DNA of 64,000 bases. Source: an uncultured Actinomycetes bacterium (GTDB lineage: Bacteria; Actinomycetota; Thermoleophilia; Solirubrobacterales; 70-9). Location: the NCBI GenBank assembly GCA_963824865.1, contig CAWGQQ010000002.1, positions 113,188 through 177,187 of the forward strand, in the 5' to 3' direction. A program made the position numbers and the translations under genes. Each line of letters begins with the position of its first letter. Within the stretch, counting starts at the first letter, position 1. This document shows positions 35,185 through 63,120 of the stretch, one piece after another. The notes below the pieces were generated by a model that did not search any database, was not told the origin of the DNA, and saw only the letters and a list, made by a program, of their open reading frames with translations.

Positions 35185-35356
35185 AACGATTCGCTAGGAT
35201 GCCGCCGCTTGACACCGCCGAGCCTCCCGGGTCTTCTCCGGGAGGGCGGGGGAACCACTGAGGCGGCCCAGGCGGCCGGCTTCGGGGCGAGTCGCGGCAA
35301 GCGCCGCGTAGCGCCAGTCCTTCGGCGCGAGCCCGTCAGCTAACCCCGCAGGCAGT
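35185..35356 (+). promoter_or_regulatory. ydaO/yuaA-type c-di-AMP riboswitch
   Basis: Matches the conserved blocks of the B. subtilis ydaO element. AUUCGCU; GGGCGGGGGAACCAC (cf GAGCGGGGGACCCA); GGGGCGAGUC (cf GGGGUGAAUCC); GAGCCCGUCAGCUAACCCCGCAGGC (cf GAACCCGUCAGCUAACCUCGUAAGC). Ends a few nt before the RBS/ATG of an Rpf-like gene. Confidence 0.8.
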
Positions 35357-35361
35357 GAAGG

Positions 35362-36399
35362 ATGGACCGTAGGCATCTGACAAGAGCCGCACGCGCGCAC
35401 GCCCGGGGGCGTTACCGCCGCGTTGGCGTGCTCGCGCTGGCCGCGGGCGCGGTGCTCGCTGTGCCCGCCGCCCAGACCGGCGCCCAGAGCGTCGACGAGC
35501 TGAGCTCCAAGATCGCCTCGGCCGAATCGCAGGCGCAGAGCCTCGGCGCCGAGATCGACGCCAGCGCTTCGCAGCTTGCCGTGGCCCGTTCCGAGGCGGC
35601 CGCTGCCGCGGCGCGAGAGGCCGAGCTCTCCATCGTGCTGGCGCAAGGCCAGGAGCGCGAGGCCCAGCTCGAGGTCAGAGTCCAAGAGACCTCGGCACAG
35701 CTCGCCAGGGCTCGAGCCCGCCTGCGCCGGGCCCTGGGGACGCTCTCGACCCGTCTCGTGTCGATCTACGAGGGCGACGCGCCGGACGCCACCGAGCTGC
35801 TGCTGGACTCGAACGGCTTCGATGACCTTGTCAATCGCGCCGAGCTTCTCGGCCGGATCGAGAGCGCCGATGCGGCGCTCGCCGCCCGGGTGCGCCAGCT
35901 CCGCAACCTGGTCTCGGCGCAGCTCGCCGAGGTGAAACGCGCTCGCGCCGAGGCGGTCGCCTTCAATCAGCGGATCGCTGCCGCCCGCGAAGCGATCGCC
36001 GGCGTTCGCGCCACGGCCGAGGCTCAGGCGGCGCGGCTCGAGCAGGCTCGTGCCGAGCAGGCGGCGGCGCTCTCCAGCCTCCGGTCCCAGGTCGCGACCT
36101 GGGAGGAGCAGGTGCAGCAGGCGCAACAGGTCTCTGCGGCAGAGGCACAGCAGACCGTTTCCAGCTGGTTCGGGGACTGGGCGATCCCGCAGGCGATCGT
36201 GATGTGCGAGTCGGGCGGCAACTTCGGCGCCGTCAATCCGTCCTCCGGCGCCGGTGGCGCCTACCAGATCCTGCCCTCGACCTGGCGCCTGTACGGCGGC
36301 AGCGGCGCTCCACAAGACGCCTCGCCTCAGGAGCAGAGCGCGATCGCCTCGCAGATCTGGGCCGACTCCGGGCCGGGCGCCTGGGTTTGCGCCCAGTAG
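35362..36399 (+). CDS. secreted coiled-coil protein with C-terminal Rpf-like transglycosylase domain
   Basis: Signal/anchor ..VGVLALAAGAVLAVPAAQ.., then ~250 aa of Ala/Glu/Gln/Arg-rich coiled coil. C-terminal ..WAIPQAIVMCESGGNFGAVNPSSGAGGAYQILPSTW..WADSGPGAWVC. Confidence 0.75.
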   Translation: MDRRHLTRAARAHARGRYRRVGVLALAAGAVLAVPAAQTGAQSVDELSSKIASAESQAQSLGAEIDASASQLAVARSEAAAAAAREAELSIVLAQGQEREAQLEVRVQETSAQLARARARLRRALGTLSTRLVSIYEGDAPDATELLLDSNGFDDLVNRAELLGRIESADAALAARVRQLRNLVSAQLAEVKRARAEAVAFNQRIAAAREAIAGVRATAEAQAARLEQARAEQAAALSSLRSQVATWEEQVQQAQQVSAAEAQQTVSSWFGDWAIPQAIVMCESGGNFGAVNPSSGAGGAYQILPSTWRLYGGSGAPQDASPQEQSAIASQIWADSGPGAWVCAQ

Positions 36400-51946: not shown

Positions 51947-51958
51947 GGAAAGCGGTGC

Positions 51959-52063
51959 GGGCTAGCGACGAAGTCGCGGTAGCGGCGTGTGGACCTGCCG
52001 GGTCAGGCTTGAACCCTAGCCCGGCGGAAACGTAGGCGAAGCCGAGGCTTCCGCCGGAGTTAT
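51959..52063 (+). repeat. structured intergenic repeat, copy A
   Basis: GGGCTAGCGACGAAGTCGCGGTAGCGGCGTGTGGACCTGCCGGGTCAGG...CCCTAGCCCGGCGGAAACGTAGGCGAAGCCGAGGCTTCCGCCGGAGTTAT. Starts 12 nt after the dnaE stop and ends 19 nt before the next ATG. Confidence 0.85.
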
Positions 52064-52082
52064 GCAGGTCTAGACTTCTGAC

Positions 52083-52478
52083 ATGCCGCTCAAGCAACTA
52101 GAGGGGGAGGGTGTCCGGGCTGGCGAGTGTCGCCAGTGCCGCACCTTCTGCGACCGTCTCGTTGACCCTCGCGGTTGCGTCGAGCTTCGCTGCCGCTATC
52201 TCTACAGCTACGTCGATTCGCTGAGCGGCGGCCACTACATGGGATGCATGCGCAAGGTGTTTCGCGCCGAGATCGACCTGTCGATGTTCGAGGCCGCTGA
52301 GCAAAACGGCGGTTACGGTGGCATCAAGATGACCGGTGAGCCGCTGCCGCAATGCCAGTTCCGGGTGGAGCCTGCCTACGAGCAGGTCGGCCCCGCTCAC
52401 GAGTGCGTCAACCCAGGCTTCTTCGACTGCGGCGACGGGGAGCCACGCGCATTCGACCTCCGCGACGCCCTGGCGTAA
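52083..52478 (+). CDS. Cys-rich hypothetical protein (131 aa, 9 Cys, CxxC)
   Basis: MPLKQLEGEGVRAGECRQCRTFCDRLVDPRGCVELRCRYLYSY... No family recognised. Bracketed by repeat copies A and B. Confidence 0.5.
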   Translation: MPLKQLEGEGVRAGECRQCRTFCDRLVDPRGCVELRCRYLYSYVDSLSGGHYMGCMRKVFRAEIDLSMFEAAEQNGGYGGIKMTGEPLPQCQFRVEPAYEQVGPAHECVNPGFFDCGDGEPRAFDLRDALA

Positions 52479-52492
52479 ACGTCGGCTCGCCG

Positions 52493-52597
52493 GGGCTAGG
52501 GACGCAGTCCCGGTAGCAGCGTGTGGACCTGCCGGGTCAGGTCGGCGCCCTAGCCCGGCGGCAACGTAGCCGAAGGCGAGGCTGCCGCCGGAGTTAT
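52493..52597 (+). repeat. structured intergenic repeat, copy B
   Basis: GGGCTAGGGACGCAGTCCCGGTAGCAGCGTGTGGACCTGCCGGGTCAGGTCGGCGCCCTAGCCCGGCGGCAACGTAGCCGAAGGCGAGGCTGCCGCCGGAGTTAT. Its last bases contain the nfo stop codon (TAA on the minus strand, 52594-52596). Confidence 0.85.
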
Positions 52598-53454
52598 TTG
52601 CGCCTGGCCAGCGCCTCTTTGCGCAGGCGTTTCGCGAGGCGCACGTCCTTGCGTGCGGGGCTGCCGCCCTGCCCGGTCCCAGTCTCGATCAGGGCGGGAA
52701 GGCCCTCGAACCGCGGCTCCGATAGGAACACCCGCAGGCCCGCGTTGCCCAGCTCGCCCTCGCCCAGGTTCGCGTGCCGGTCGCGGTTGGAGCCGAGCGG
52801 AACCTTGGAGTCGTTGACGTGCAAGCAGCGCAACCGGTCGAGGCCGACCTTGGCGTGGAAGTCGTCCACCACCTCGGCGAGCGCCTCGGCCGAGCGGATC
52901 TCGAACCCCGAGGCGAGCAGGTGGCAGCAGTCGAGGCAGGCGCCCAGGCGCTTGCCGCCTCCAGCGGCGTCGATCAGCTCGGCGAGCTCGTCGAAGTTGC
53001 GGCCGAGCGGGCCCTGCGTTCCAGCGGTGTTCTCGAGCAGCAGCGGCGAGCGCTCCGAGCTTTCGAGCGCCTCGCGGATGGCCTTGCCGGCGCGTTTTAT
53101 CGAAGGACCCTGAGGCTCTCCCTTGCGTGCCCCGGCGTGCAGGACAACCCCGGCAGCGGCGATTCCATCGCCGATCCGCAGCGCGTGCTCCAGCGAGGTC
53201 AGCGATTTACGCCGGATCTCACGTTCCTTGCTGGCGCAGTTGATCAGGTAAACGGCATGGATGACGACGGCCTGCAGCGGCGAGGCGGCGATCGCCTCGC
53301 GAAACGCTTCGAAGTCCTCCTCGGTGTAGGACGTCGGTCGCCACATCCGGGGGCTCTGGTGGAAGATCTGGATCGCTTCGCAGTCACGCTCGACCCCGCG
53401 ATGGACGGCGTTCACCAGCCCGCCCGCCGTGGAGACGTGCGCGCCGATCAGCAC
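52594..53454 (-). CDS. nfo: endonuclease IV (AP endonuclease)
   Basis: ..IGAHVSTAGGL.., ..AIQIF..SPRMW.., ..VVLHAG.., ..LLENTAG.., ..CLDCCHL.., ..LHVNDSK... GTG start. Confidence 0.9.
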   Translation of the reverse strand: MLIGAHVSTAGGLVNAVHRGVERDCEAIQIFHQSPRMWRPTSYTEEDFEAFREAIAASPLQAVVIHAVYLINCASKEREIRRKSLTSLEHALRIGDGIAAAGVVLHAGARKGEPQGPSIKRAGKAIREALESSERSPLLLENTAGTQGPLGRNFDELAELIDAAGGGKRLGACLDCCHLLASGFEIRSAEALAEVVDDFHAKVGLDRLRCLHVNDSKVPLGSNRDRHANLGEGELGNAGLRVFLSEPRFEGLPALIETGTGQGGSPARKDVRLAKRLRKEALARRK

Positions 53455-53537
53455 CGGCGGCCCCGTCTCGCGCGGGTGCGGCGACCAACCCGCTTTGAGG
53501 TAAATCTACTCGTAATCACTACCCGAAAACAGGGTAG

Positions 53538-55523
53538 GTGGCGATAGGACCAGGCAGGATCGTGCGTTTACTGATCGACGCCCGCCTCCAAGGACGGAGG
53601 CGAGGCCAGGCAGGGTGTCTACAGCAGGGCGGGGATGCAGTAACTGTGACTGTGGCAGGGAGAACGTACGCAAAGCGTGCCAGGGGGCCCGGCGGTGCCG
53701 AGGGCGCGCGCCGCATCGAGCAACTCGCCCGCGCTACGCGCGCCATCTCCGAGGCGCCCGACTCCGAGCACGCCATTGCCGCGCTGCTGGAACACGCCCA
53801 TGGCATGTTCGGCGCCCGCAGGGCCGAGCTCGTGCTGCTCTCGCACGAGCAGGCGACGAGCGCCCTTCGAGCGAGGTTGGAGCCCGGCCGTCCGATCGCT
53901 CGTCCGCGCGCCATCGATCCCTCGACCGATCCCGTGTGGAATGCGGTTGCAGGCCTCCGCCAAGGCGTGCACCTGCCCGCGGCGGCGAGCGTCAAGGCGC
54001 AGGAGGGGCTGCGCGCGGAGGGGATCCAGGAGGCGATCGCCGCTCCAATCGTTCAGGCCGGCAGCTTCAAGGGCGCGGTGCTCGTCGCCAATCCCGTCAA
54101 CGAGCTGAAGGGCTTCTCGAGCGACGACGTAGCGCTGGTCCAGCTTCTGGCCGCCCACGCGGGCGCGGCGCTCGAGGTCGACCGGCTCAGCGAGTCGTTC
54201 ACGGAGCTTCGACGCCTCGAACGTGAGCTCAGGCACCACGCCCTGCACGACGATCTGACGGGTCTCGCCAACCGCGTTCTGTTCATCGAGCGTCTCAAGC
54301 ACGCGTTGACCCGGCGCTCGCAGGCGCCGCTGGCGGTTCTGTTCATCGACCTCGACGACTTCAAGTCGGTGAACGACACGCACGGTCACGCCGCCGGCGA
54401 CCAGCTATTGGTACGGGTGGCGAATCGGCTGGAGCGGTGCATGCGCCCGCACGACACGGCGGCGCGGCTCGGCGGGGACGAGTTCGGAGTCCTGCTCGAG
54501 GAGATCGCCGGTGAGGGCGAGGCCGAGCAGATCGCCGAGCGCATCGCCTGCGCCCTGCGCGACGAGCGCGCGAACGGCCGCGGCGGCACCCGGATCAGCG
54601 TCGGGATCGCGATGGCGCGGCCCGGGAATGCGGACTCGGAGGAGTTGCTGCGCAACGCCGACCTCGCGATGTACGCGGCGAAGGACGGGGGCAAGAATCG
54701 CAAGGCGCTCTTCCGGCTCACGATGTACGAGCAGGCGGCCCTTCGGTACAACCTCGGCGCCGAGCTGCCGGCGGCCATCCGCAATCATCAGCTCGTTGTG
54801 CATTACCAGCCCATCCGGGCGCTCGATGGCCGCCGGATAGCGGGCCATGAGGCACTTGTTCGCTGGCGCCATCCCGTTCGTGGTCAGCTGCCGCCGACGG
54901 ACTTCCTCCCGGTGGCCGAGGTGGCCGGCGTGATGCCCGAGGTGTTTCGCTGGACCCTTGGCCGGGCGCTTGCGGATTGTTCTGGGCAGAGCCTGCCCAA
55001 CGAAGGCTTCATGTGCGTGAACGTCTCGCCGAGCCAGCTCGAGCATCGAGACTTCCTCGCAGACCTCGAAAGGGCGCTGGCCGACTCAGAGGTGCCGGCG
55101 GATCGCCTGATCCTGGATCTCGTCGAGACCGAGCTGATGGACGGGCTGATCCTTGCGACGACCCGACTCGAGGCCGTCCGCCGCCTGGGTGTGCGAGTGG
55201 CTATCGACGACTTCGGTACCGGACATTCCTCCCTCGAGCATCTGGTGCGACTGCCGGTGGACATCATCAAGATCCCGCGTTCGCTGACCACGGACACCGC
55301 GCGCAACCGGCGCGCGACCGCGCTCCTGGACGCCGTCCGTTCGATGGCAGACGAGCTCGACCTGACGGTGGTGGCGGAGGGCCTCGAGGAAGAGGACCAG
55401 CTGCAGACGCTGACCGAGATCGGGATCCCGTACGGGCAGGGCTTCCTGCTCGGTCGTCCCGCGCCGCTCGGGTTCGCAACTGACCGCGCTCTGGCGGGTT
55501 ACGACGTCCAGGAGCCGAAATGA
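53538..55523 (+). CDS. GAF-GGDEF-EAL c-di-GMP turnover protein
   Basis: GAF-like N-terminus; ..HDDLTGLANR..FIDLDDFKSVNDTHGHAAGD..RLGGDEFGVLL..; ..YQPI..GHEALVRW..VNVS..DDFGTGHSSL..DIIKI..AEGLEEEDQL..GQGFLLGRP. Start uncertain. Confidence 0.9.
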   Translation: MAIGPGRIVRLLIDARLQGRRRGQAGCLQQGGDAVTVTVAGRTYAKRARGPGGAEGARRIEQLARATRAISEAPDSEHAIAALLEHAHGMFGARRAELVLLSHEQATSALRARLEPGRPIARPRAIDPSTDPVWNAVAGLRQGVHLPAAASVKAQEGLRAEGIQEAIAAPIVQAGSFKGAVLVANPVNELKGFSSDDVALVQLLAAHAGAALEVDRLSESFTELRRLERELRHHALHDDLTGLANRVLFIERLKHALTRRSQAPLAVLFIDLDDFKSVNDTHGHAAGDQLLVRVANRLERCMRPHDTAARLGGDEFGVLLEEIAGEGEAEQIAERIACALRDERANGRGGTRISVGIAMARPGNADSEELLRNADLAMYAAKDGGKNRKALFRLTMYEQAALRYNLGAELPAAIRNHQLVVHYQPIRALDGRRIAGHEALVRWRHPVRGQLPPTDFLPVAEVAGVMPEVFRWTLGRALADCSGQSLPNEGFMCVNVSPSQLEHRDFLADLERALADSEVPADRLILDLVETELMDGLILATTRLEAVRRLGVRVAIDDFGTGHSSLEHLVRLPVDIIKIPRSLTTDTARNRRATALLDAVRSMADELDLTVVAEGLEEEDQLQTLTEIGIPYGQGFLLGRPAPLGFATDRALAGYDVQEPK

Positions 55524-57061
55524 GGCCGATCTTGGAGCCCACATTGGACACGCGTACGGAGCAGCCTCGCCCCCGGCAGCTTGGCGTCCTCAACGCGCGC
55601 CGTGTGCTGGACCTGGTCGCGCTCGGGATCGTGCCCTCCGCAGCCGCTGGCCTGCTCGCCTTCGCTCACACCAACCGTCCCTATTGGGGGGGAGTGGTGG
55701 CGATCTGCATCCTGGTCGCAAACCAGCTGGTCAGCAGGACGAGGTACCCGCTCCACCTGATGCCGGTCGCGAGGCTCGCCATGTGCGGCCTGACCCCGTT
55801 CCTGGGGGCGCTCCTGGCGTGGGCCGCCGCTCTCTCCACGGGGATGGGCTCCTTGGGCGACTCACTGATCCCCGCGGTGGCCGGCGCGGTGCCGCTCGCG
55901 GCCCTCGGCTGCTGGGTCAGGGACCTTTTCGACAGGAACGTTGTGGCGCGGATCGCGGTGATCGGCGACCCGGAGGTTGCGGAAGGGCTCAGCAGGGAGA
56001 TCGCCGCGGCAGGGATTCGCGGCTACCGGGTCCTGGGCTGGATCTCCGTCGGTGGCCTACCTCTCGCCGATCCCGCCCCAGGGGTTCCCCACCTCGGCTC
56101 GATCGACGGCCTGCGCCGGATCGTCCCCGCTCACCAGATCGAATTGCTCGTCCACGCGCAGGGCCCGGGCGGGGAGGTCTCTCGCCTCGACATCTTCGAA
56201 GGGGTCGGCGCAGCCTGCCTCGACCTCCCGGTGAGGTTGATCGAGGCAAGCCAGTTCTATGAGGAGCTCCTGGGCCACGTTCCCGTCGGCCAGATCAACG
56301 CCGCCTGGTTCCAGTACATCATGCACCCGCGCTACCGGAGTACCCCGACCATCTCAAAGCGGCTCTTCGACTTCGCGGTCGGCAGCGTCGCGCTGGTCGC
56401 GTTCGCGCCGCTGATCGCCCTTTTCGCGGTCGCCATCAAGCTCTCGGATGGTGGGCCGGTGTTCTACCGGCAGCGGCGGATCGGCGAGGGTGGCCGCGAT
56501 TTCGAGATGGTCAAGCTGCGCTCGATGCGCCCGGGGGCGCAGGCGGACGGCGCACAGTGGTCGAGCCGCGACGACGATCGCGTGCTGCCGGTCGGCCGGG
56601 TGATGCGCAAGCTCCACATCGACGAGCTTCCCCAGCTGTGGAACGTGCTGCGCGGCGAGATGACGCTGGTCGGCCCGCGGCCGGAGCAGCCGGAGCTCGT
56701 GGCGGAGCTCGAGCGTCGCTTTCCTCACTACGAGCGCCGCAGCCTGGTGAAGCCCGGCATCACGGGGTGGGCCCAGGTGCGCTGCGGCTACGCGGGAACG
56801 AAGGAAGGATCCGCCTGGAAGCTCTGTCACGACCTCTACTACTTGAAGCACCGCTCGCTGCTCGCGGATCTGATGATCATCTTGGAGACGGCGCGGGCGC
56901 TCGGGCAGCGAGCCCAATTCGACGTGGAGGCACCGAGCGAGCAGTTCATAGTCCGGAGTGAGCCGGGGCCGGCCGTCGCGATGACCGCCGCAACGCCGGC
57001 GACCGAGCAGCCCTTCCGTGGCGGCGGTGGCCGCGCCGCGATCGACGTGCTGCGCCCGTAG
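55520..57061 (+). CDS. polyprenyl-phosphate glycosyl-1-phosphate transferase (second WbaP/Bac_transf paralog)
   Basis: ..GGPVFYRQRRIGEGGRDFEMVKLRSM..IDELPQLWNVLRGEMTLVGPRPEQP..KPGITGWAQ... Same overall architecture as 42998..44458. ATGA overlap with the GGDEF-EAL gene. Confidence 0.9.
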   Translation: MRPILEPTLDTRTEQPRPRQLGVLNARRVLDLVALGIVPSAAAGLLAFAHTNRPYWGGVVAICILVANQLVSRTRYPLHLMPVARLAMCGLTPFLGALLAWAAALSTGMGSLGDSLIPAVAGAVPLAALGCWVRDLFDRNVVARIAVIGDPEVAEGLSREIAAAGIRGYRVLGWISVGGLPLADPAPGVPHLGSIDGLRRIVPAHQIELLVHAQGPGGEVSRLDIFEGVGAACLDLPVRLIEASQFYEELLGHVPVGQINAAWFQYIMHPRYRSTPTISKRLFDFAVGSVALVAFAPLIALFAVAIKLSDGGPVFYRQRRIGEGGRDFEMVKLRSMRPGAQADGAQWSSRDDDRVLPVGRVMRKLHIDELPQLWNVLRGEMTLVGPRPEQPELVAELERRFPHYERRSLVKPGITGWAQVRCGYAGTKEGSAWKLCHDLYYLKHRSLLADLMIILETARALGQRAQFDVEAPSEQFIVRSEPGPAVAMTAATPATEQPFRGGGGRAAIDVLRP

Positions 57062-57075
57062 TCTCACGGGCCTAG

Positions 57076-58455
57076 ATGCCTCGCCTTCGCTTCGCCCCCT
57101 CGCCGACGGGGGCGCTCCACATCGGCGGTGCCCGAACGGCCCTCTACAACTGGCTGCTCGCCCGGCACTTGGACGGCACGCTTGTGCTGCGGATCGAGGA
57201 CACCGACCGCGAGCGCTCCGTGCCCGAGAACGTCGAGCAGATCCTGGATGCTTTGCGGTGGCTGGAGCTCGACTGGGATGAGGGCCCGATGAGCCAGTTC
57301 GAACGCCGCCAGCGCCACAGCGAGCGGGTGGAGGAGCTGCTTGCAGGCGGCCACGCCTATCCCGACCCGGCCGTCGCGGAGGACGTTCGCTCCTGGAAGC
57401 AGGCCCACGGGGGCGCCGGCTACCGGGGCGAGCCCCGGGACGAGCCTGGCGCAGCGATCCGCCTGCGCGTCCCGGACGAGGGGGTGACCGTGGTCGAGGA
57501 CCTGATCCGCGGGCCGGTGCGGTTCGAGAACCGGACCCAGGACGACTTCGTGATCGCGCGGGGTGACGGCACCCCGCTGTACAACCTCGCGGTCGCAGTG
57601 GACGATGCCGACATGGGGATCACCGACGTCGTTCGTGGCGACGACCACCTGTCGAACACGCCGAAGCAGTTGCTGGTCCTGGGTGCCCTCGACGCCGTCG
57701 CGCCGCGGTATGCGCATCTGCCGCTCCTGCACGGGCCCGACGGGCGCAAGCTGTCGAAGCGTCATGGCGCCGCCTCGGTGCAGGAGTTGCGCGAGGGCGG
57801 CTACCTGCCGGTCGCGGTCCGCAACTATCTCGCTCTGCTCGGTTGGGGCACCGAGGACGACGCGACGATTCTCAGCACCGACGAGCTGATCGAGCGCTTC
57901 TCGATCGACCGCGTGGGACGCTCCTCGGCGATCTTCGACGAGCGCAAGCTGCGCTGGCTCAACGGGCGCTTCATGCGCGAGCTGCCGCTCGACTCCTACG
58001 AGCAGCGACTGGGCGCTCATCTGCGACTCCAGGGCGAGCCGGGCGCGGAGGCGTTCGATGCCGCGGAACCCGAGCAGCGGAGGACCGCATGCGAGATCGT
58101 CCAAGACAAGGCGCAGACGCTCGACGAGGCGTGGCCCTTGATCCGGTTCCTCTTCGCGGGGCCGCTCGACGACGCGGATGCCTGGGAGCGGGTGATGACC
58201 CCCGAGGCACGCTCCGTGCTTACACAGGCCCTCGAGGCCCTGCGCTCCGTGGACGGCTTCGACCCGGCCTCGATCGAGGCGGCGCTGAGCCCGATCGTCG
58301 AGCGCTCAGGCCGCAGCGCGAAGGCCGTTTATCAGCCGATCCGGGTTGCGATCACCGGCACCACCGTCTCGCCGGGCATCTTCGACTCGCTCGCCGCGCT
58401 GGGACGCGAAGGGTCCCTGGCCAGAATCGAGAAGGCGCTGAACAGGCTCGGGTGA
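57076..58455 (+). CDS. gltX: glutamyl-tRNA synthetase
   Basis: MPRLRFAPSPTGALHIGGARTALYNWL.. (HIGH), ..KLSKRHG.. (KMSKS). Confidence 0.95.
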   Translation: MPRLRFAPSPTGALHIGGARTALYNWLLARHLDGTLVLRIEDTDRERSVPENVEQILDALRWLELDWDEGPMSQFERRQRHSERVEELLAGGHAYPDPAVAEDVRSWKQAHGGAGYRGEPRDEPGAAIRLRVPDEGVTVVEDLIRGPVRFENRTQDDFVIARGDGTPLYNLAVAVDDADMGITDVVRGDDHLSNTPKQLLVLGALDAVAPRYAHLPLLHGPDGRKLSKRHGAASVQELREGGYLPVAVRNYLALLGWGTEDDATILSTDELIERFSIDRVGRSSAIFDERKLRWLNGRFMRELPLDSYEQRLGAHLRLQGEPGAEAFDAAEPEQRRTACEIVQDKAQTLDEAWPLIRFLFAGPLDDADAWERVMTPEARSVLTQALEALRSVDGFDPASIEAALSPIVERSGRSAKAVYQPIRVAITGTTVSPGIFDSLAALGREGSLARIEKALNRLG

Positions 58456-58560
58456 GCCCGAACTGGGGGCCACCCCCATGGCGGGTCAGGGCGCGGTCTC
58501 GGCGCCAGGGCTAAACAAGCGCCTCCGCCTTGCCGATCATGAAAGCGGGTAGCGACACGC

Positions 58561-59757
58561 ATGCCTCCGGTAGCCACCAAGCAGCGACGTCAGCGGGCGT
58601 CGCAGAAGCGCGCGCCAGCGTCGCGGAAGGGTGCCACGAGCGCATCCCGGAATCGCCCGCCGTCCCAAACGCAAGCCAAGCCACGAAACACGAAGCCAAG
58701 GAAAGGGAATGGTGGGATGCCCAAGCCGGCGACGACAAGAGAGCGCGATGGGGGACAGGGCGGCCGCCGTCTTGCCGCGGCGTTCGACTCCGCCTCGCGC
58801 CTGCCGGCGCTGGCCGAGTCGCGCCGGCGCCTCCTTCGCGCCTCGGAGCACGAGGTCTCGTCGAGGGGAGAGCTGGCCCAGGCGATCGAGTCTGACGTCG
58901 CTTTGACGATTGCCGTCATGCGCGCGGCCGGCGGCGCCCACGCCAATGGCAGAACCGGCGGCGTGGAACAGGCGATCGAGGCGCTCAGCCCACCTGGCGT
59001 GCGAGAAGTCGTCGCATCAATCGAAACCTACGACCCGCTTGATTCGCCAAATGCTCGAGCAGAGCGATACGAGCGCTTCCGGCGTCACGCGGTGGCCACC
59101 CGCCTTGCCGCCGACCGGATCGGAGAGCTGGCGCGCCTTCCGGAGCGAGACGAGCTGGCGGTTGCGGCGCTTCTTCACGACGTGGGACGCCTCGTCCTGT
59201 CCGAGATGTACGACCAGTTCGAGAAGCTCGACGACCGGCGGATGGCGCCCGAGGCGCGGGTGCGGTGCGAGCGTCGCGAGCTCGGGATCGACCATGCGCT
59301 GGTCGGCGCGGTCCTTGTCCGGCGCTGGGGCCTTCCCCAGGGCGTCGCGGCGGCAGTCGAGCGGCATCACGCGCCGCGCGCGAGCGGACACGCGGCGGCC
59401 ATCCGGCTCGCCGACCTGATCGTCCACCACGCTCACGGCGAGGCCGCCCCCGTCGACGCGATCGTCGATGCGGCCTCGAGGCTCGGGCTGGAGCGCGAGC
59501 AACTGGGGGCGCTCGTCTACGAGTTTCCGTATGCGGGCACCGAGCGCCGACGCAGCTCGGACCCCTGCCCGCTGTCGACCCGCGAGATCGACGCGCTGCG
59601 CGGACTCGCGGAGGGCAAGGTCTACAAGCAGATTGCCTCCGAGCTGTCGCTTTCGGTGAGCACGATTCGCACCCACCTGCACAACGTCTACCGCAAGATC
59701 GATGCGGTCGATCGTGCCCAAGCGGTCCTGATCGCACGCGACCGCGGCTGGATCTAG
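58561..59757 (+). CDS. HDOD-like domain fused to a C-terminal LuxR/GerE HTH, with a basic low-complexity N-terminal tail
   Basis: ..IESDVALTIAVMRAA.., ..HAVATRLAADRI..ELAVAALLHDVGRLVL.., ..HALVGAVLVRRWGLPQGVAAAVERHH.. (HDOD-like). Then ..LSTREIDALRGLAEGKVYKQIASELSLSVSTIRTHLHNVYRKI... The start may instead be ATG 58717. Confidence 0.62.
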   Translation: MPPVATKQRRQRASQKRAPASRKGATSASRNRPPSQTQAKPRNTKPRKGNGGMPKPATTRERDGGQGGRRLAAAFDSASRLPALAESRRRLLRASEHEVSSRGELAQAIESDVALTIAVMRAAGGAHANGRTGGVEQAIEALSPPGVREVVASIETYDPLDSPNARAERYERFRRHAVATRLAADRIGELARLPERDELAVAALLHDVGRLVLSEMYDQFEKLDDRRMAPEARVRCERRELGIDHALVGAVLVRRWGLPQGVAAAVERHHAPRASGHAAAIRLADLIVHHAHGEAAPVDAIVDAASRLGLEREQLGALVYEFPYAGTERRRSSDPCPLSTREIDALRGLAEGKVYKQIASELSLSVSTIRTHLHNVYRKIDAVDRAQAVLIARDRGWI

Positions 59758-59762
59758 CAGGA

Positions 59763-59869
59763 ATAACTCCGGCGGCAGCCTCGCCTTCGGCTGCGTATGC
59801 CTGCCGGGTTAGGGCGCGGTGCCTGACCCGGCAGGTCCACACGCCGTACCGGGACTTCGTCCCTAGCCC
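59763..59869 (-). repeat. structured intergenic repeat, copy C (inverted orientation)
   Basis: Plus strand reads ATAACTCCGGCGGCAGCCTCGCCTTCGGCTGCG...CCTGACCCGGCAGGTCCACACGCCGTACCGGGACTTCGTCCCTAGCCC. Starts 5 nt after the upstream TAG, between convergent genes. Confidence 0.85.
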
Positions 59870-59897
59870 GGGCGATCCACCTTCAGCCGGGGCGCGT

Positions 59898-60522
59898 CTA
59901 CTCGATCAGTGAGGAGCGCAGGGCGATTGCCACCGCGTGGGCGCGATCTTGGGCGCCTAGCCGCGCCAGGATCGCCTTCGTGTGCGTGCGAACGGTCTCC
60001 GCGCTCAGGCCGAGGCGCTTGGCGACCCGCGCGGTCGATTGGCCGTCGGCGTAGAGCTGAATGATCTGGCGCTGGCGGCGCGTGAGCCCAGACCCGCGCC
60101 CGGGGCGGCCGGCCGCCGGGTCGACGAAGCTGCTCGGCCTCCACGGCGGCGTCCACGGCTCGGTGCAGCTCCTCGACCGACGAGCTCTTGACGACATAGG
60201 CGGTGGCGCCGGCCTTGATCGCCTCGGTGGCGGCGTGATGCTGGGCCTCGGGCCCGTGAGCGACGATCCCCAGGCCTGGCTGCGCCTTGCGAAGAGCGCG
60301 GATCGCCGCCATTCCCGAGAGATCCTCGCCTCGCTCCCGCCCGTTCGCGCGGCCCAGATCGACGATCGCGACGTCGAAGTCGCCGATCGAGGTGAGCAGC
60401 TCGAGGGCGCTGTCCCCGTTCTCGGCCTCCTCGACCTCATACCGGCGCCCGAGAGCCTCGCGCACCCCTAGGCGCACGGTGGGCTGGGCGTCTATGACCA
60501 TGCAGCGTCGGTCCTCGCTCAC
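59898..60522 (-). CDS. NarL/FixJ-type response regulator (REC + LuxR HTH), one apparent frameshift near 60120-60135
   Basis: REC: ..MVIDAQPTVRLGV..FDVAIVDL..VKSSSVEEL.. (ORF 59863..60522). HTH: ..LTRRQRQIIQLYADGQSTARVAKRLGLSAETVRTHTKAILARLG.. (ORF 59898..60440). GAGGA RBS before the GTG start. Confidence 0.8.
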
Positions 60523-60703
60523 AAATCCTCACTCCGACCGCGACTCCGCGGCCAAGCCACGGTCACCCGGCCCCCGAGAGCACAACTCCGGCCATCCGCG
60601 CCGGTGTTCCCATCCTAGCGACGGCCAAACGGATCGGCCCCCTGCCGAGCGGAAACAGCGACCTTTTCTTCGACGCCGCCGATTCCGATACAAAGGCCCT
60701 CGG

Positions 60704-61102
60704 ATGATCTCCGTGACCTCGAAGTCCCGCTACGCGGTGGTCGCTCTCGCCGAGCTGGCGCGCTCGGGAGAGCGGCCGGTCCCGATCGCGCAGATCGCCG
60801 AGCGGCGCGACATGCCGGTGCAGTTCCTCGAGCAGCTGTTCACGACCCTGCGTCGCGATGGGCTGCTGCAGAGCCACCGCGGCGTCAAGGGCGGCTACAC
60901 GCTCGCGCGACCCGCCCAGGAGATCAACGTGCTCGAGGTCGTGCAGTCGCTCGACGGCAGGGTGGGGCAGGAGGGCAAGGAGGCCGGCGGCATCTGGGAG
61001 CAGGGCGTCGAGGCGCTCCGCGACGTCTTCCGAGGCACCACGATCGCCGACATCGCCCGCCGCGAGGCCGAGGAGGCCGGGGCGGGGATGTACCACATCT
61101 AG
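60704..61102 (+). CDS. Rrf2-family transcriptional regulator (CymR/IscR-like)
   Basis: MISVTSKSRYAVVALAELAR..PVPIAQIAERRDMPVQFLEQLFTTLRRDGLLQSHRGVKGGYTLARP... Confidence 0.85.
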   Translation: MISVTSKSRYAVVALAELARSGERPVPIAQIAERRDMPVQFLEQLFTTLRRDGLLQSHRGVKGGYTLARPAQEINVLEVVQSLDGRVGQEGKEAGGIWEQGVEALRDVFRGTTIADIARREAEEAGAGMYHI

Positions 61103-61161
61103 CTCGACAGCTGGGTCTATGGCCGGTTAGGGACGCTCCTGGGAGGCGCCCGGCGCTACCG

Positions 61162-61913
61162 CTACGATCCCGGCGCCAGCCAGGTCATCGAGAACTCGGG
61201 GCTGTACTCGGAATGCTCCCAATGGTCTTGGAGCTGCCGCTGAGCTGTGACACGAGCACCTCGATGTAGTCGCCCGCGACGAGCCTCGCCATGGTGCTGA
61301 CCGTGTTGGCGTCGTTGCCGGCATCTTCCTCCCACGCCAAAAGTACGCTTCCGTTCTTCCTCAGCTGTACGGTGCTCGCCCCGCCGTGAACTGGGCCCCC
61401 GACCACCGGACGTCGGCGCTCACCTCGTAGATGCCCGTCACCGGGCGCCGTCAGCCGGGAGGTGTTGGACGAGTTCGAGTGCATGCTCGCCGTGTCGTAG
61501 CGCTCGGAGTTGAAGGCGAGAACTCCGAGGGTGCCGTTTGGGATCACCTGGCCGCTGGTGTTCGTCACCCGCGCGGCCGGGATGCGAGGTCGCATGCTCG
61601 CTGCGTGCCGACCGCGTTCGCGCCGATGTCCGACGCTGGTGAGGGTGTCGGTCGCGATGTCGGAGCCGAGCAGGCCGCTGGTGGCGACGTCGGAGCCGGT
61701 CAAGGTGCTGTTCGCGACCCTGTCGGCTGGTGACCGCACTCGGTCCCAGATCGGCGTTTTGGACCTGGCCGTCCTGGATGTCGCCCGGTGCTGATCGTGT
61801 TGGCGCCGCCGCGGATGGGTGGCGTAGGCGGTGCCGCCCATCGCGAAGCAAAACGAGCGCGATCGTAGCCGACGACGTTTGAGCGCGAGGTGCTGGCGGA
61901 TCGCTCGGGACAT
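61162..61913 (-). pseudogene. secreted repeat protein with C1q/TNF-like jelly-roll C-terminus, needs several frame changes
   Basis: Pieces in three frames. MSRAIRQHL / SNVVGY / AMGGTAYATHP / RGGANTISTG / DIQDGQVQNADLGPSAVTS / DRVANSTLTGSDVATSGLLGSDIATDTLTS. Then ..ARVTNTSGQVIPNGTLGVLAFNSERYDTASMH..RLTAPGDG.., ..VQLRKNGSVLLA..ARLVAGDYIEVLVSQLSG.., and in another frame ..HSEYSPEFSMTWLAPGS stop (61162-61164). Confidence 0.4.
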
Positions 61914-62039
61914 GGCAGGCCCTCCCACAAGGTTCGAGGAGCGGGCACGGGCTGTGTCCGCTGTCACGAGGACGCTACACCCGAGCGGCGCCTGCCGTCA
62001 ATCCGTGTGTTGACGCCGGTACGTATCTCGGCTCCCACC

Positions 62040-62999
62040 GTGGGTGGAGAGCCGCGAACAGCAGACGGGCCTGCCGCGATCGCGCGCGAGGCGTCGAGCA
62101 CGGTGGGCAACACGCCGCTGGTCGCTCTGCGACGAATGGCCGAAGGGCTCGGGGCCGAGGTCGTCGCCAAGCTCGAGTACCTGAGCCCGGGCGGCTCGGT
62201 CAAGGACCGGATCGGAGTGGCGATGATCGACGCCGCGGAGCGCGAGGGGCGGATCGAGCCCGGGCGTTCGGTGATCGTCGAGTCGACCAGCGGCAACACC
62301 GGGATCGCGCTGGCGATGGTCTGCGCCGCCCGCGGCTACGAGCTGGTGCTGACGCTGCCCGAGGGGATGACCCGGGAGCGGACCGCGCTGCTCCGCACCT
62401 ACGGCGCCGAGGTCCACGAGACCCCGTCGCTGGGCGGCATGAACGAGGCGGTGGAGTTGGCGGAGCGGATCGCGAGCGACCGTGGCGCGTTCATGCCCCA
62501 GCAGTTCAACAACCCCGCCAACCCCGAGATCCATCGGCGCACCACCGCCGAGGAGATCTGGCGCGATCTCGACGGCGAGGTCGACGCGCTCGTCTGCGGC
62601 GTCGGCACCGGGGGCACGATCACCGGCGTCGGGCAGGTGCTCAAGGAGCGCCGCCCCTCGGTCCAGGTGGTCGCCGTGGAGCCCGCCACCTCGGCGGTGC
62701 TCGCGGGCGGGATTCCGGGACCGCACAAGATCCAGGGGATCGGCGCCGGCTTCGTACCCGAGGTGCTCGACCGCTCGGTGATCGACGAGGTGATCCCGGT
62801 GGACGACGAGACCGCGCTTCGGCGCGCGCGCGAGGCGGCCCAACGCGAGGGCCTGCTGGTCGGGATCTCGGCCGGCGCCGCGATCGACGCGGCGCTCGAG
62901 CTCGCCGCCCGGCCCGAGCTGTCCGGGAAGCGGGTCGTGGTAATCGTCCCCGACGGCGGCGAGCGCTACATGTCGCTGCCCTTCTTCGCCCCGGAATAA
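62040..62999 (+). CDS. cysK: cysteine synthase A (O-acetylserine sulfhydrylase)
   Basis: ..[45 protein letters not shown]... GTG 62040 gives the usual ~319 aa length. Confidence 0.93.
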
Positions 63000-63107
63000 A
63001 TAACTCCGCCGAAAGCCTCGCCTTCGGCGACGTTTCCGCCGGGCTAGGGCGCCGAGCCTGACCCGGCAGGTTCACACGCGAGCTACCGCGGACTCCGTCC
63101 CTAGCCC
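63000..63107 (-). repeat. structured intergenic repeat, copy D (inverted orientation)
   Basis: Plus strand reads ATAACTCCGCCGAAAGCCTCGCCTTCGGCGACGTTTCCGCCGGGCTAGGGCGCCGAGCCTGACCCGGCAGGTTCACACGCGAGCTACCGCGGACTCCGTCCCTAGCCC. Begins directly after the cysK TAA and ends 13 nt before the cysE GTG. Confidence 0.85.
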
Positions 63108-63120
63108 GTACGCTTTAGCC

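Follow-up and report, generated by a model that had tools for sequence, protein, structure and literature searches.

Repetitive extragenic palindromes (REPs) are recognized by a short hairpin with 5' GT[AG]G at its foot, and they have been reported to end transcription and to stabilize mRNA (PMC6006769). GTAG REPs are extragenic, lie mostly downstream of genes and supply TAG stop codons from their termini to flanking open reading frames (ORFs), and since some of their families number 20-100 units or fewer, low copy number alone does not exclude a repeat from membership (PMC3733652). At the ends of insertion sequences (ISs) of the IS200/IS605 type, Y1/HUH enzymes read hairpins in single-stranded DNA (ssDNA) (PMC3733652, PMC6006769). 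Here, we describe a structured intergenic repeat in a window of 64,000 nt from an uncultured Actinomycetes bacterium (GTDB lineage Actinomycetota; Thermoleophilia; Solirubrobacterales; 70-9), taken from positions 113,188-177,187 of the forward strand of contig CAWGQQ010000002.1 in assembly GCA_963824865.1. We conclude with high confidence that the repeat is mobile, DNA-level repeat DNA. We also find it reasonably probable that it represents a new family of non-autonomous mobile repeats in uncultured soil Actinomycetes, similar to REPs and bacterial interspersed mosaic elements (BIMEs), that is handled as ssDNA, probably by a Y1/HUH transposase.

A preliminary description, made from the letters of the window, had placed four copies of the repeat within it. 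When we searched the window with filters off, using a covariance model (CM) trained on 41 full copies, we recovered exactly these four at 97-131 bits, and the only other matches, at ≤18 bits, were antisense self-hits and noise. Both the 23-mer core GCGTGTGGACCTGCCGGGTCAGG and the 3' block of the repeat occur four times in the window against zero expected, and mean column identity across the aligned copies is 85%. All four copies fall inside 11 kb, leaving the remaining 52 kb without any. The strand on which the unit begins with YSGYYC-GGGCTAG, which we call F, is the plus strand for copies A and B and the minus strand for C and D. With neighboring genes assigned by Pfam and the ORF list, the copies are as follows.

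51953-52065, plus strand: copy A, in F orientation (CM match 51959-52065, 129.1 bits; 5' end lengthened by the conserved YSGYYC), in the spacer from dnaE (stop 51946) to orf131 (start 52083).
52487-52599, plus strand: copy B, in F orientation (CM match 52493-52599, 131.3 bits), in the spacer from orf131 (stop 52478) to an nfo-like AP endonuclease gene, a convergent pair.
59761-59875, minus strand: copy C (CM match 59761-59869, 97.1 bits), in the spacer from an HDOD-LuxR gene (stop 59757) to a response-regulator gene, a convergent pair.
62998-63113, minus strand: copy D (CM match 62998-63107, 101.5 bits), in the spacer from cysK to a hexapeptide acetyltransferase gene (cysE-like), a co-directional pair.

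Turnover at orthologous sites is the strongest evidence that this is mobile or rapidly turned-over DNA. We compared the four sites with those of relatives whose flanks are 82-97% identical to the window, denoting the sampled loci by L numbers and two of the hairpins of the unit as P2 and P4.

Site A (dnaE-orf131): in F orientation in the window; reversed in L038 (flanks 97% identical) and L040; chimeric in L003; empty in L015, L060, L064 and L074.
Site B (orf131-nfo): in F orientation in the window, L054 and L064; reversed in L038, L040, L015, L003, L060, L074 and L077.
Site C (HDOD-LuxR to response regulator): orientation constant; six relatives carry different P2/P4 variants and extra fragments.
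Site D (cysK-cysE): filled in the window, L026 and L037; reversed and 5'-truncated in L030; empty in L006 and L076; reduced to a 15-nt remnant in L032.

In either state of site B, the ATAAC end abuts the stop codon of the convergent gene that it faces. The reverse situation also occurs, with L036 holding a copy at a point where the window, at 12.4 kb, is empty.

The family extends well beyond the window. An exact search with the 21-mer GTGTGRACCTGCCGGGTCAGG found 51 blocks in GTDB species genomes and 37 soil-metagenome contigs, and apart from one chance match all of the GTDB blocks come from seven metagenome-assembled genomes (MAGs) labeled uncultured Actinomycetes or Actinomycetota. Over 626 kb from these seven related MAGs and soil metagenomes, the CM identified 122 copies. 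Genome loci were sampled as 8-kb blocks around matches, which makes the per-MAG counts of at least 7-14 copies lower bounds. Many metagenome matches lie at contig ends. By raw counts, a single 318-kb contig of MAG CAVUDI accounts for six of its seven blocks with the core, and a single 1.0-Mb contig of MAG CAVSJS for five of its six. Plasmids and phages showed no similarity to the repeat, and a literature search for the core sequence gave a single, unrelated paper.

The unit is noncoding and modular, with a short form of ~113 nt (a fixed array of 107-113 nt) and a long form of ~143 nt, the latter with additional hairpins within the loop of P4. On the F strand, YSGYYC-GGGCTAG is followed by P2, GGTAGC, the 21-mer with P3, CCCTAGCCC, P4 enclosing P5, and the tail AGTTATTC. 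On the 5' side, the unit extends 6 nt beyond the boundary drawn previously (YSGYYC, with G at -4 in 83/90 copies), and at the 3' end conservation drops sharply past the terminal TTC; information content in the flanks is at background beyond -6 and immediately past TTC. In copy B, the parts are placed as follows.

52499-52511, plus strand: P2, a mini-hairpin GGGAC-GCA-GTCCC with CTAG before it (family form GSGAC-GNA-GTCSC).
52521-52541, plus strand: the invariant 21-mer GTGTGGACCTGCCGGGTCAGG, which contains P3 (CCTG-CCGGGT-CAGG).
52555-52591, plus strand: P4, a long hairpin of CCGGCGGCA...TGCCGCCGG around ACGTAG, P5 and CGAGGCT (7-9 bp in the family).
52569-52577, plus strand: P5, a mini-hairpin GCC-GAA-GGC with GTAG before it (family form GSC-GNA-GSC).
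52592-52599, plus strand: the 3' tail AGTTATTT, a version of the consensus given above, whose reverse complement gives TAA.

The distance from the GGGC end to the start of P2 is 7 nt, and 8-10 nt separate the end of P4/P5 from the TTC end. The loop of P2 is of the C(GNA)G type in 97/122 copies (GAA 78, GCA 13, GGA 5, GTA 1), and CTAG stands directly 5' of it in 94/122. P5, which has 3-4 pairs and is nested in P4, has a C(GNA)G loop in 84 copies and is preceded by GTAG in 69/122, the others having GCAG, GGAG or GGAC. The pairs of P3 do not vary among the 41 full copies and its loop is CCGGGT in 113/122 copies; because P3 and its 5' flank are invariant, covariation neither supports nor refutes P3 as a helix. 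In copy C, the 5' arm of P4 carries a GGCAGG variant (59806-59840, minus strand), as a result of which ACCCGGCAGG and the core CCTGCCGGGT form an alternative hairpin of 10 bp that dominates the predicted fold on both strands.

Many copies are truncated, arranged in tandem or chimeric. Module 1, which has a 7-nt inverted repeat GGGCTAG/CTAGCCC, is found alone in L038 and L077, and the hom-thrC spacer contains a left-end-only fragment. Second copies in tandems begin just past P2, and short 3'-terminal fragments are stacked right after full copies, up to three in L011. Some copies that at first look 5'-truncated (L035 3758-3936 and L024 798-975) are in fact interrupted, with the GGGCTAG-P2 module 60-77 nt upstream of the 21-mer and unrelated sequence between. 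We discarded a retroelement-like origin of the 5' truncations, as we saw no reverse transcriptase or other support for it.

We scored covariation in the hairpins against 500 shuffles and slid controls, and P2, P4 and P5 exceeded all of both. At the second pair of P2, 69 copies have CG and 37 have GC, and at the middle pair of P5, 56 have CG and 50 have GC. Several pairs of P4 take 2-4 Watson-Crick states, one being CG 52, GC 46, UA 3 and AU 1, and another GC 59, AU 26 and CG 6. Three such paired differences had been pointed out between copies A and B, and all are as described: GCGAC/GTCGC versus GGGAC/GTCCC, CCGGCGGAA/TTCCGCCGG versus CCGGCGGCA/TGCCGCCGG, and GGC-GAA-GCC versus GCC-GAA-GGC. 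A paired change in P2 is also seen between the site C orthologues L003 and L015, among ~8 substitutions in 107 nt. The outer GGGCTAG/CTAGCCC stem (P1) of the preliminary description is not supported, since it is paired in copies A, B and D and in 81% of cells family-wide but shows no real covariation; its 5' half is fixed while its 3' half drifts, with 43 C-A mismatches at one pair.

The same description had read the paired changes as selection on structure in either RNA or ssDNA. P2, P4 and P5 indeed covary strongly, while a function at the RNA level is unlikely. Helix cells outside P1 comprise 2236 Watson-Crick pairs, 23 G-T, 34 A-C and 74 other mismatches, such that wobble pairs (~1% of cells) are no more common than their A-C mirror on either strand and there is no strand asymmetry. 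Together, the near-absence of wobble pairs and the orientation flips at orthologous sites argue for DNA rather than RNA.

The repeat is closely tied to gene ends. Each of the four copies in the window occupies a spacer at a gene end, and copy D fills the cysK-cysE spacer, of which it had been noted to take up almost the whole. The nfo stop codon falls inside copy B (TAA at 52594-52596, minus strand, in the TTAT end), again in line with what had been reported, and we additionally found that the response-regulator gene beside copy C stops at the TAG of GGGCTAG (59863-59865). Across the family, the ORFs flanking many copies terminate in GGGC-TAG or in TAA/TGA of the opposite end, and at many copies ORFs with high G+C at third codon positions stop within a few nucleotides of, or inside, the 3' tail end. 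The F strand of copy B has TAG in all three frames (copy positions 5, 22, 59 and 75), so that a gene reading into it would be stopped within 80 nt; its reverse strand has stop codons in two frames. On crude gene calls for 65 copies, 28 lie between convergent, 28 between co-directional and 9 between divergent genes. By the same calls, the R strand is co-transcribed in 18 of the co-directional copies and the F strand in 10. A gene end is found at the TTATTC side in 46/65 copies.

These features resemble those of GTAG REPs and BIMEs, which are known from E. coli, Pseudomonas and Stenotrophomonas and are mobilized by RAYT/TnpA-REP. Both consist of short imperfect hairpins that are rich in GC and have (G/C)TAG at the foot, both are extragenic and mostly downstream of genes with stop codons drawn from their termini, and in both paired changes preserve the stems. 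Copies are single, clustered or mosaic and patchy among close relatives in each case, and neither has terminal inverted repeats or target-site duplications. Other modular, structured intergenic repeats of ~100 nt, in which modules may be missing or duplicated, are BOX of Streptococcus pneumoniae and the ERIC and Correia elements, which like our repeat may affect neighboring transcripts and whose mobilizing enzymes are at best indirectly known. Correia and ERIC have terminal inverted repeats and BOX has a boxA-boxB-boxC order, and none is related in sequence to the element described here, the modules of which are TAG-tagged GNA mini-hairpins and an invariant hairpin. Palindrome-associated transposable elements (PATEs) of the IS200/IS605 group likewise carry subterminal hairpins at either end and lack both inverted repeats and a target duplication, and hairpin recognition in a single strand would account for covariation that is limited to Watson-Crick pairs (mechanism as in PMC6006769). 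Unlike PATEs, our element has no conserved 4-5 nt target at its left end, it occurs in both orientations on one replichore within 11 kb, its two end hairpins differ in sequence, and the sampled DNA yielded no parent IS carrying tnpA or tnpB.

Based on these comparisons, we propose that the hairpins may be recognized in ssDNA, most likely in the F strand. We favor F as the active strand because P2 and P5 have C(GNA)G loops on it, and DNA mini-hairpins of this type are unusually stable. A gene elsewhere in the genome would encode the enzyme, probably a RAYT-type or IS200/IS605-type Y1/HUH transposase, and the element would be its REP/BIME- or PATE-like passenger, although our confidence in this enzymatic step is moderate to low. 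The donated stop codons, like the hairpins at the ends of transcripts, would then be side effects that make insertions tolerable rather than the reason for the element, which is most likely neither a new RNA class nor a dedicated terminator. The preliminary description had offered a REP- or MITE-like mobile element (miniature inverted-repeat transposable element) as one possibility. Site turnover, TAG/GTAG at the feet of hairpins and termini with stop codons fit its REP-like part best, while a strict MITE is excluded.

Several observations weigh against this proposal. A RAYT/TnpA-REP gene is usually flanked by its REPs (a REPtron), and we found no such arrangement around the sampled copies: a tblastn search with E. 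coli RayT gave no match below E = 0.5 in the 626 kb around the 122 copies, an HUH motif followed by Yx3[NQ] was present in 0 of 3468 ORFs of ≥100 aa (positive control included), no multi-copy ORF family lies near the sampled copies, and no gene in the sampled DNA is enclosed by a left-end/right-end pair. The unit itself combines three unlike hairpins in a fixed direct order with a 21-mer, whereas a REP is a single palindrome of 20-40 nt, and the tag at P2 is CTAG rather than GT[AG]G. Copies number about ten or more per genome, in contrast to hundreds for REPs; inverted doublets of the REPIN type are rare (L009, L021 and L003 only), most arrays being direct or truncated. Actinobacteria are not among the hosts listed in the 2013 survey of GTAG REPs (PMC3733652). 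The paired changes could stem from hairpin-templated (quasipalindrome) correction rather than from selection, and empty and filled sites are too diverged for the exact target to be read. Finally, there is only a weak bias in how copies are oriented with respect to GC skew (43 versus 25), a count confounded with gene direction and orthology; within the window, GC skew shows no sign change.

Two candidates that arose during the enzyme search were rejected. The best RayT match, in L026, is noise within a phage-like region. A gene bracketed by inverted copies whose TTATTC ends point toward it (L008 1763-2449, L055 51-728 and L069 1-624) turned out to be hpf, a ribosome hibernation factor, rather than a transposase.

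Among the alternatives, we considered whether the repeat is a host-selected module for transcript ends, that is, an I-shaped or bidirectional factor-independent terminator or an mRNA 3'-end stabilizer that insulates neighboring genes. Placement agrees with this idea, given the enrichment between convergent genes (28/65), the gene ends at the TTATTC side (46/65) and the GC-rich hairpins directly after stop codons, as does the order of P4/P5 followed by AGUUAUUC on the F strand; the termination and mRNA stabilization reported for REPs (PMC6006769) would be a precedent. However, a simple terminator pattern of a hairpin plus T-tract is present in only one of the four window copies (D), on the strand without an upstream gene and thus facing away from any gene, and such patterns are fewer in the region than in its shuffles. 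Copy D also sits inside the co-directional cysK-cysE pair, and several relatives that share the genes around site A or D lack a copy there, which indicates that these sites can do without the module. Termination involves neither the invariant 21-mer nor the TAG tags, and the truncated 3' fragments are left unaccounted for. We therefore regard a transcript-end function as an unlikely, though not negligible, explanation, and a dedicated factor-independent terminator, as the preliminary description had entertained, as unlikely.

A structured noncoding RNA or a cis-acting element of the 3' untranslated region (UTR), such as a small RNA (sRNA), a ribozyme-like or a protein-binding structure, in which the RNA fold is under selection, appears improbable to us. 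Covarying stems around invariant loop and junction sequence are the classic pattern of noncoding RNA, and most copies lie at gene 3' ends where transcription would reach them. On the other hand, G-U pairs are not enriched over A-C on either strand, and the orientation relative to the upstream gene flips between close relatives at the co-directional sites A and D, both of which speak against the 3'-UTR sRNA proposed earlier, and copies are often truncated, in tandem or chimeric. Folding of single sequences yields z-scores of only -1 to -4 on both strands, and RNA and DNA energies do not discriminate. No Rfam family matches the repeat at its gathering score, in keeping with the preliminary description: in the window, the Rfam 15 scan at gathering thresholds matched only a c-di-AMP (ydaO/yuaA) riboswitch aptamer (35206-35369, plus strand; 61.6 bits against a gathering score of 38).

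Permissive Rfam scans of copies A, B and L038 gave noise apart from one weak match to Twister-P5 in a variant copy (L038 4948-5003, minus strand), the sole Rfam signal in favor of an RNA. At 21.2 bits, it is far below the cut-off of 37.6, and it rests on the 16-nt CCGGTCCCAAGCCCGG, which equals the twister P4 hairpin consensus but is absent from the window copies; we judge it to be coincidence. A tRNA-like origin was rejected after a negative ARAGORN search, and an integron attC site because, by inspection, R''/R' inverted core sites are lacking.

A further possibility, to which we also assign only a small chance, is that the repeat, rather than being a RAYT or IS200 passenger, is a new kind of module proximal to stop codons in which a recombinase or host factor not yet described recognizes the invariant 21-nt hairpin and the stop-bearing ends permit the unit to be installed, flipped or removed at gene 3' ends with no harm to the genes; the unit could also serve as an exchangeable bidirectional transcript-end cassette. 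Such a module would be compatible with the lack of a transposase in the sampled DNA, the stacked 3' fragments and the apparent regional clustering of copies. We find it very unlikely that the 21-mer is instead a chromosomal site for a host DNA-binding protein with a nucleoid, segregation or regulatory role, the rest of the unit being carried along. The 21-mer is indeed invariant across species whose coding flanks are 82-90% identical, and copies are concentrated on few contigs, as on the CAVUDI contig described above and in the 11 kb of the window. The contig counts are raw, however, the core is a hairpin rather than a dyad-symmetric duplex site, and such a site leaves the covarying hairpins, sharp ends, stop-codon termini, truncated copies and empty orthologous sites unaccounted for.

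Least probable of all is a classical MITE, which would have arisen by deletion from an IS with a DDE transposase and would move by cut-and-paste via terminal inverted repeats: size, copy number, intergenic placement, presence/absence polymorphism and the inverted repeat of module 1, which can stand alone, would suit it, but the consensus unit ends YSGYYCGGGCTAG... and ...CGGAGTTATTC are not reverse complements, direct repeats of 2-5 nt are not above the shuffled control at any tested offset in 90 full copies, the 3' half of the 7-nt repeat decays freely and the sampled DNA has no transposase-like multi-copy ORF. The lack of terminal inverted repeats and of target-site duplications excludes a DDE-type MITE.

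Some features of the surrounding DNA are of separate interest. Between sites A and B, orf131 (52083-52478, plus strand) encodes a Cys-rich protein of 131 aa without a Pfam family, and all relatives retain it in this place, between dnaE and nfo. For DDE transposases, the first 48 kb of the window were covered by reading the translations, which show housekeeping and polysaccharide-synthesis genes. Beside cysK in L026 (1700-8000; CAVUDI010000002.1), phage-like genes (capsid-like, DNA methylase and paired SnoaL-like ORFs) have no counterpart in the window, which suggests an integrated element. In L013 (455-5152), two adjacent genes are duplicated in inverted arrangement around a copy of the repeat at 2181-2298, forming a palindromic gene duplication centered on the repeat.

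Our analysis adds a well-defined structured repeat family, with a CM and an alignment of 122 copies, from a little-known soil lineage of Actinomycetes, in a phylum where GTAG-type REPs were uncatalogued as of the 2013 survey (PMC3733652). For annotation, it matters that neighboring genes such as nfo, cysK and the response regulator borrow stop codons from the element, so that their C-termini shift when it is inserted, flipped or lost, and for assembly that many metagenome copies lie at contig ends. The family also offers a caution for RNA discovery, as strong covariation of hairpins is by itself no proof of RNA. If the mobilizing enzyme is found, the repeat would provide a compact system for studying the recognition of ssDNA hairpins in high-GC bacteria.

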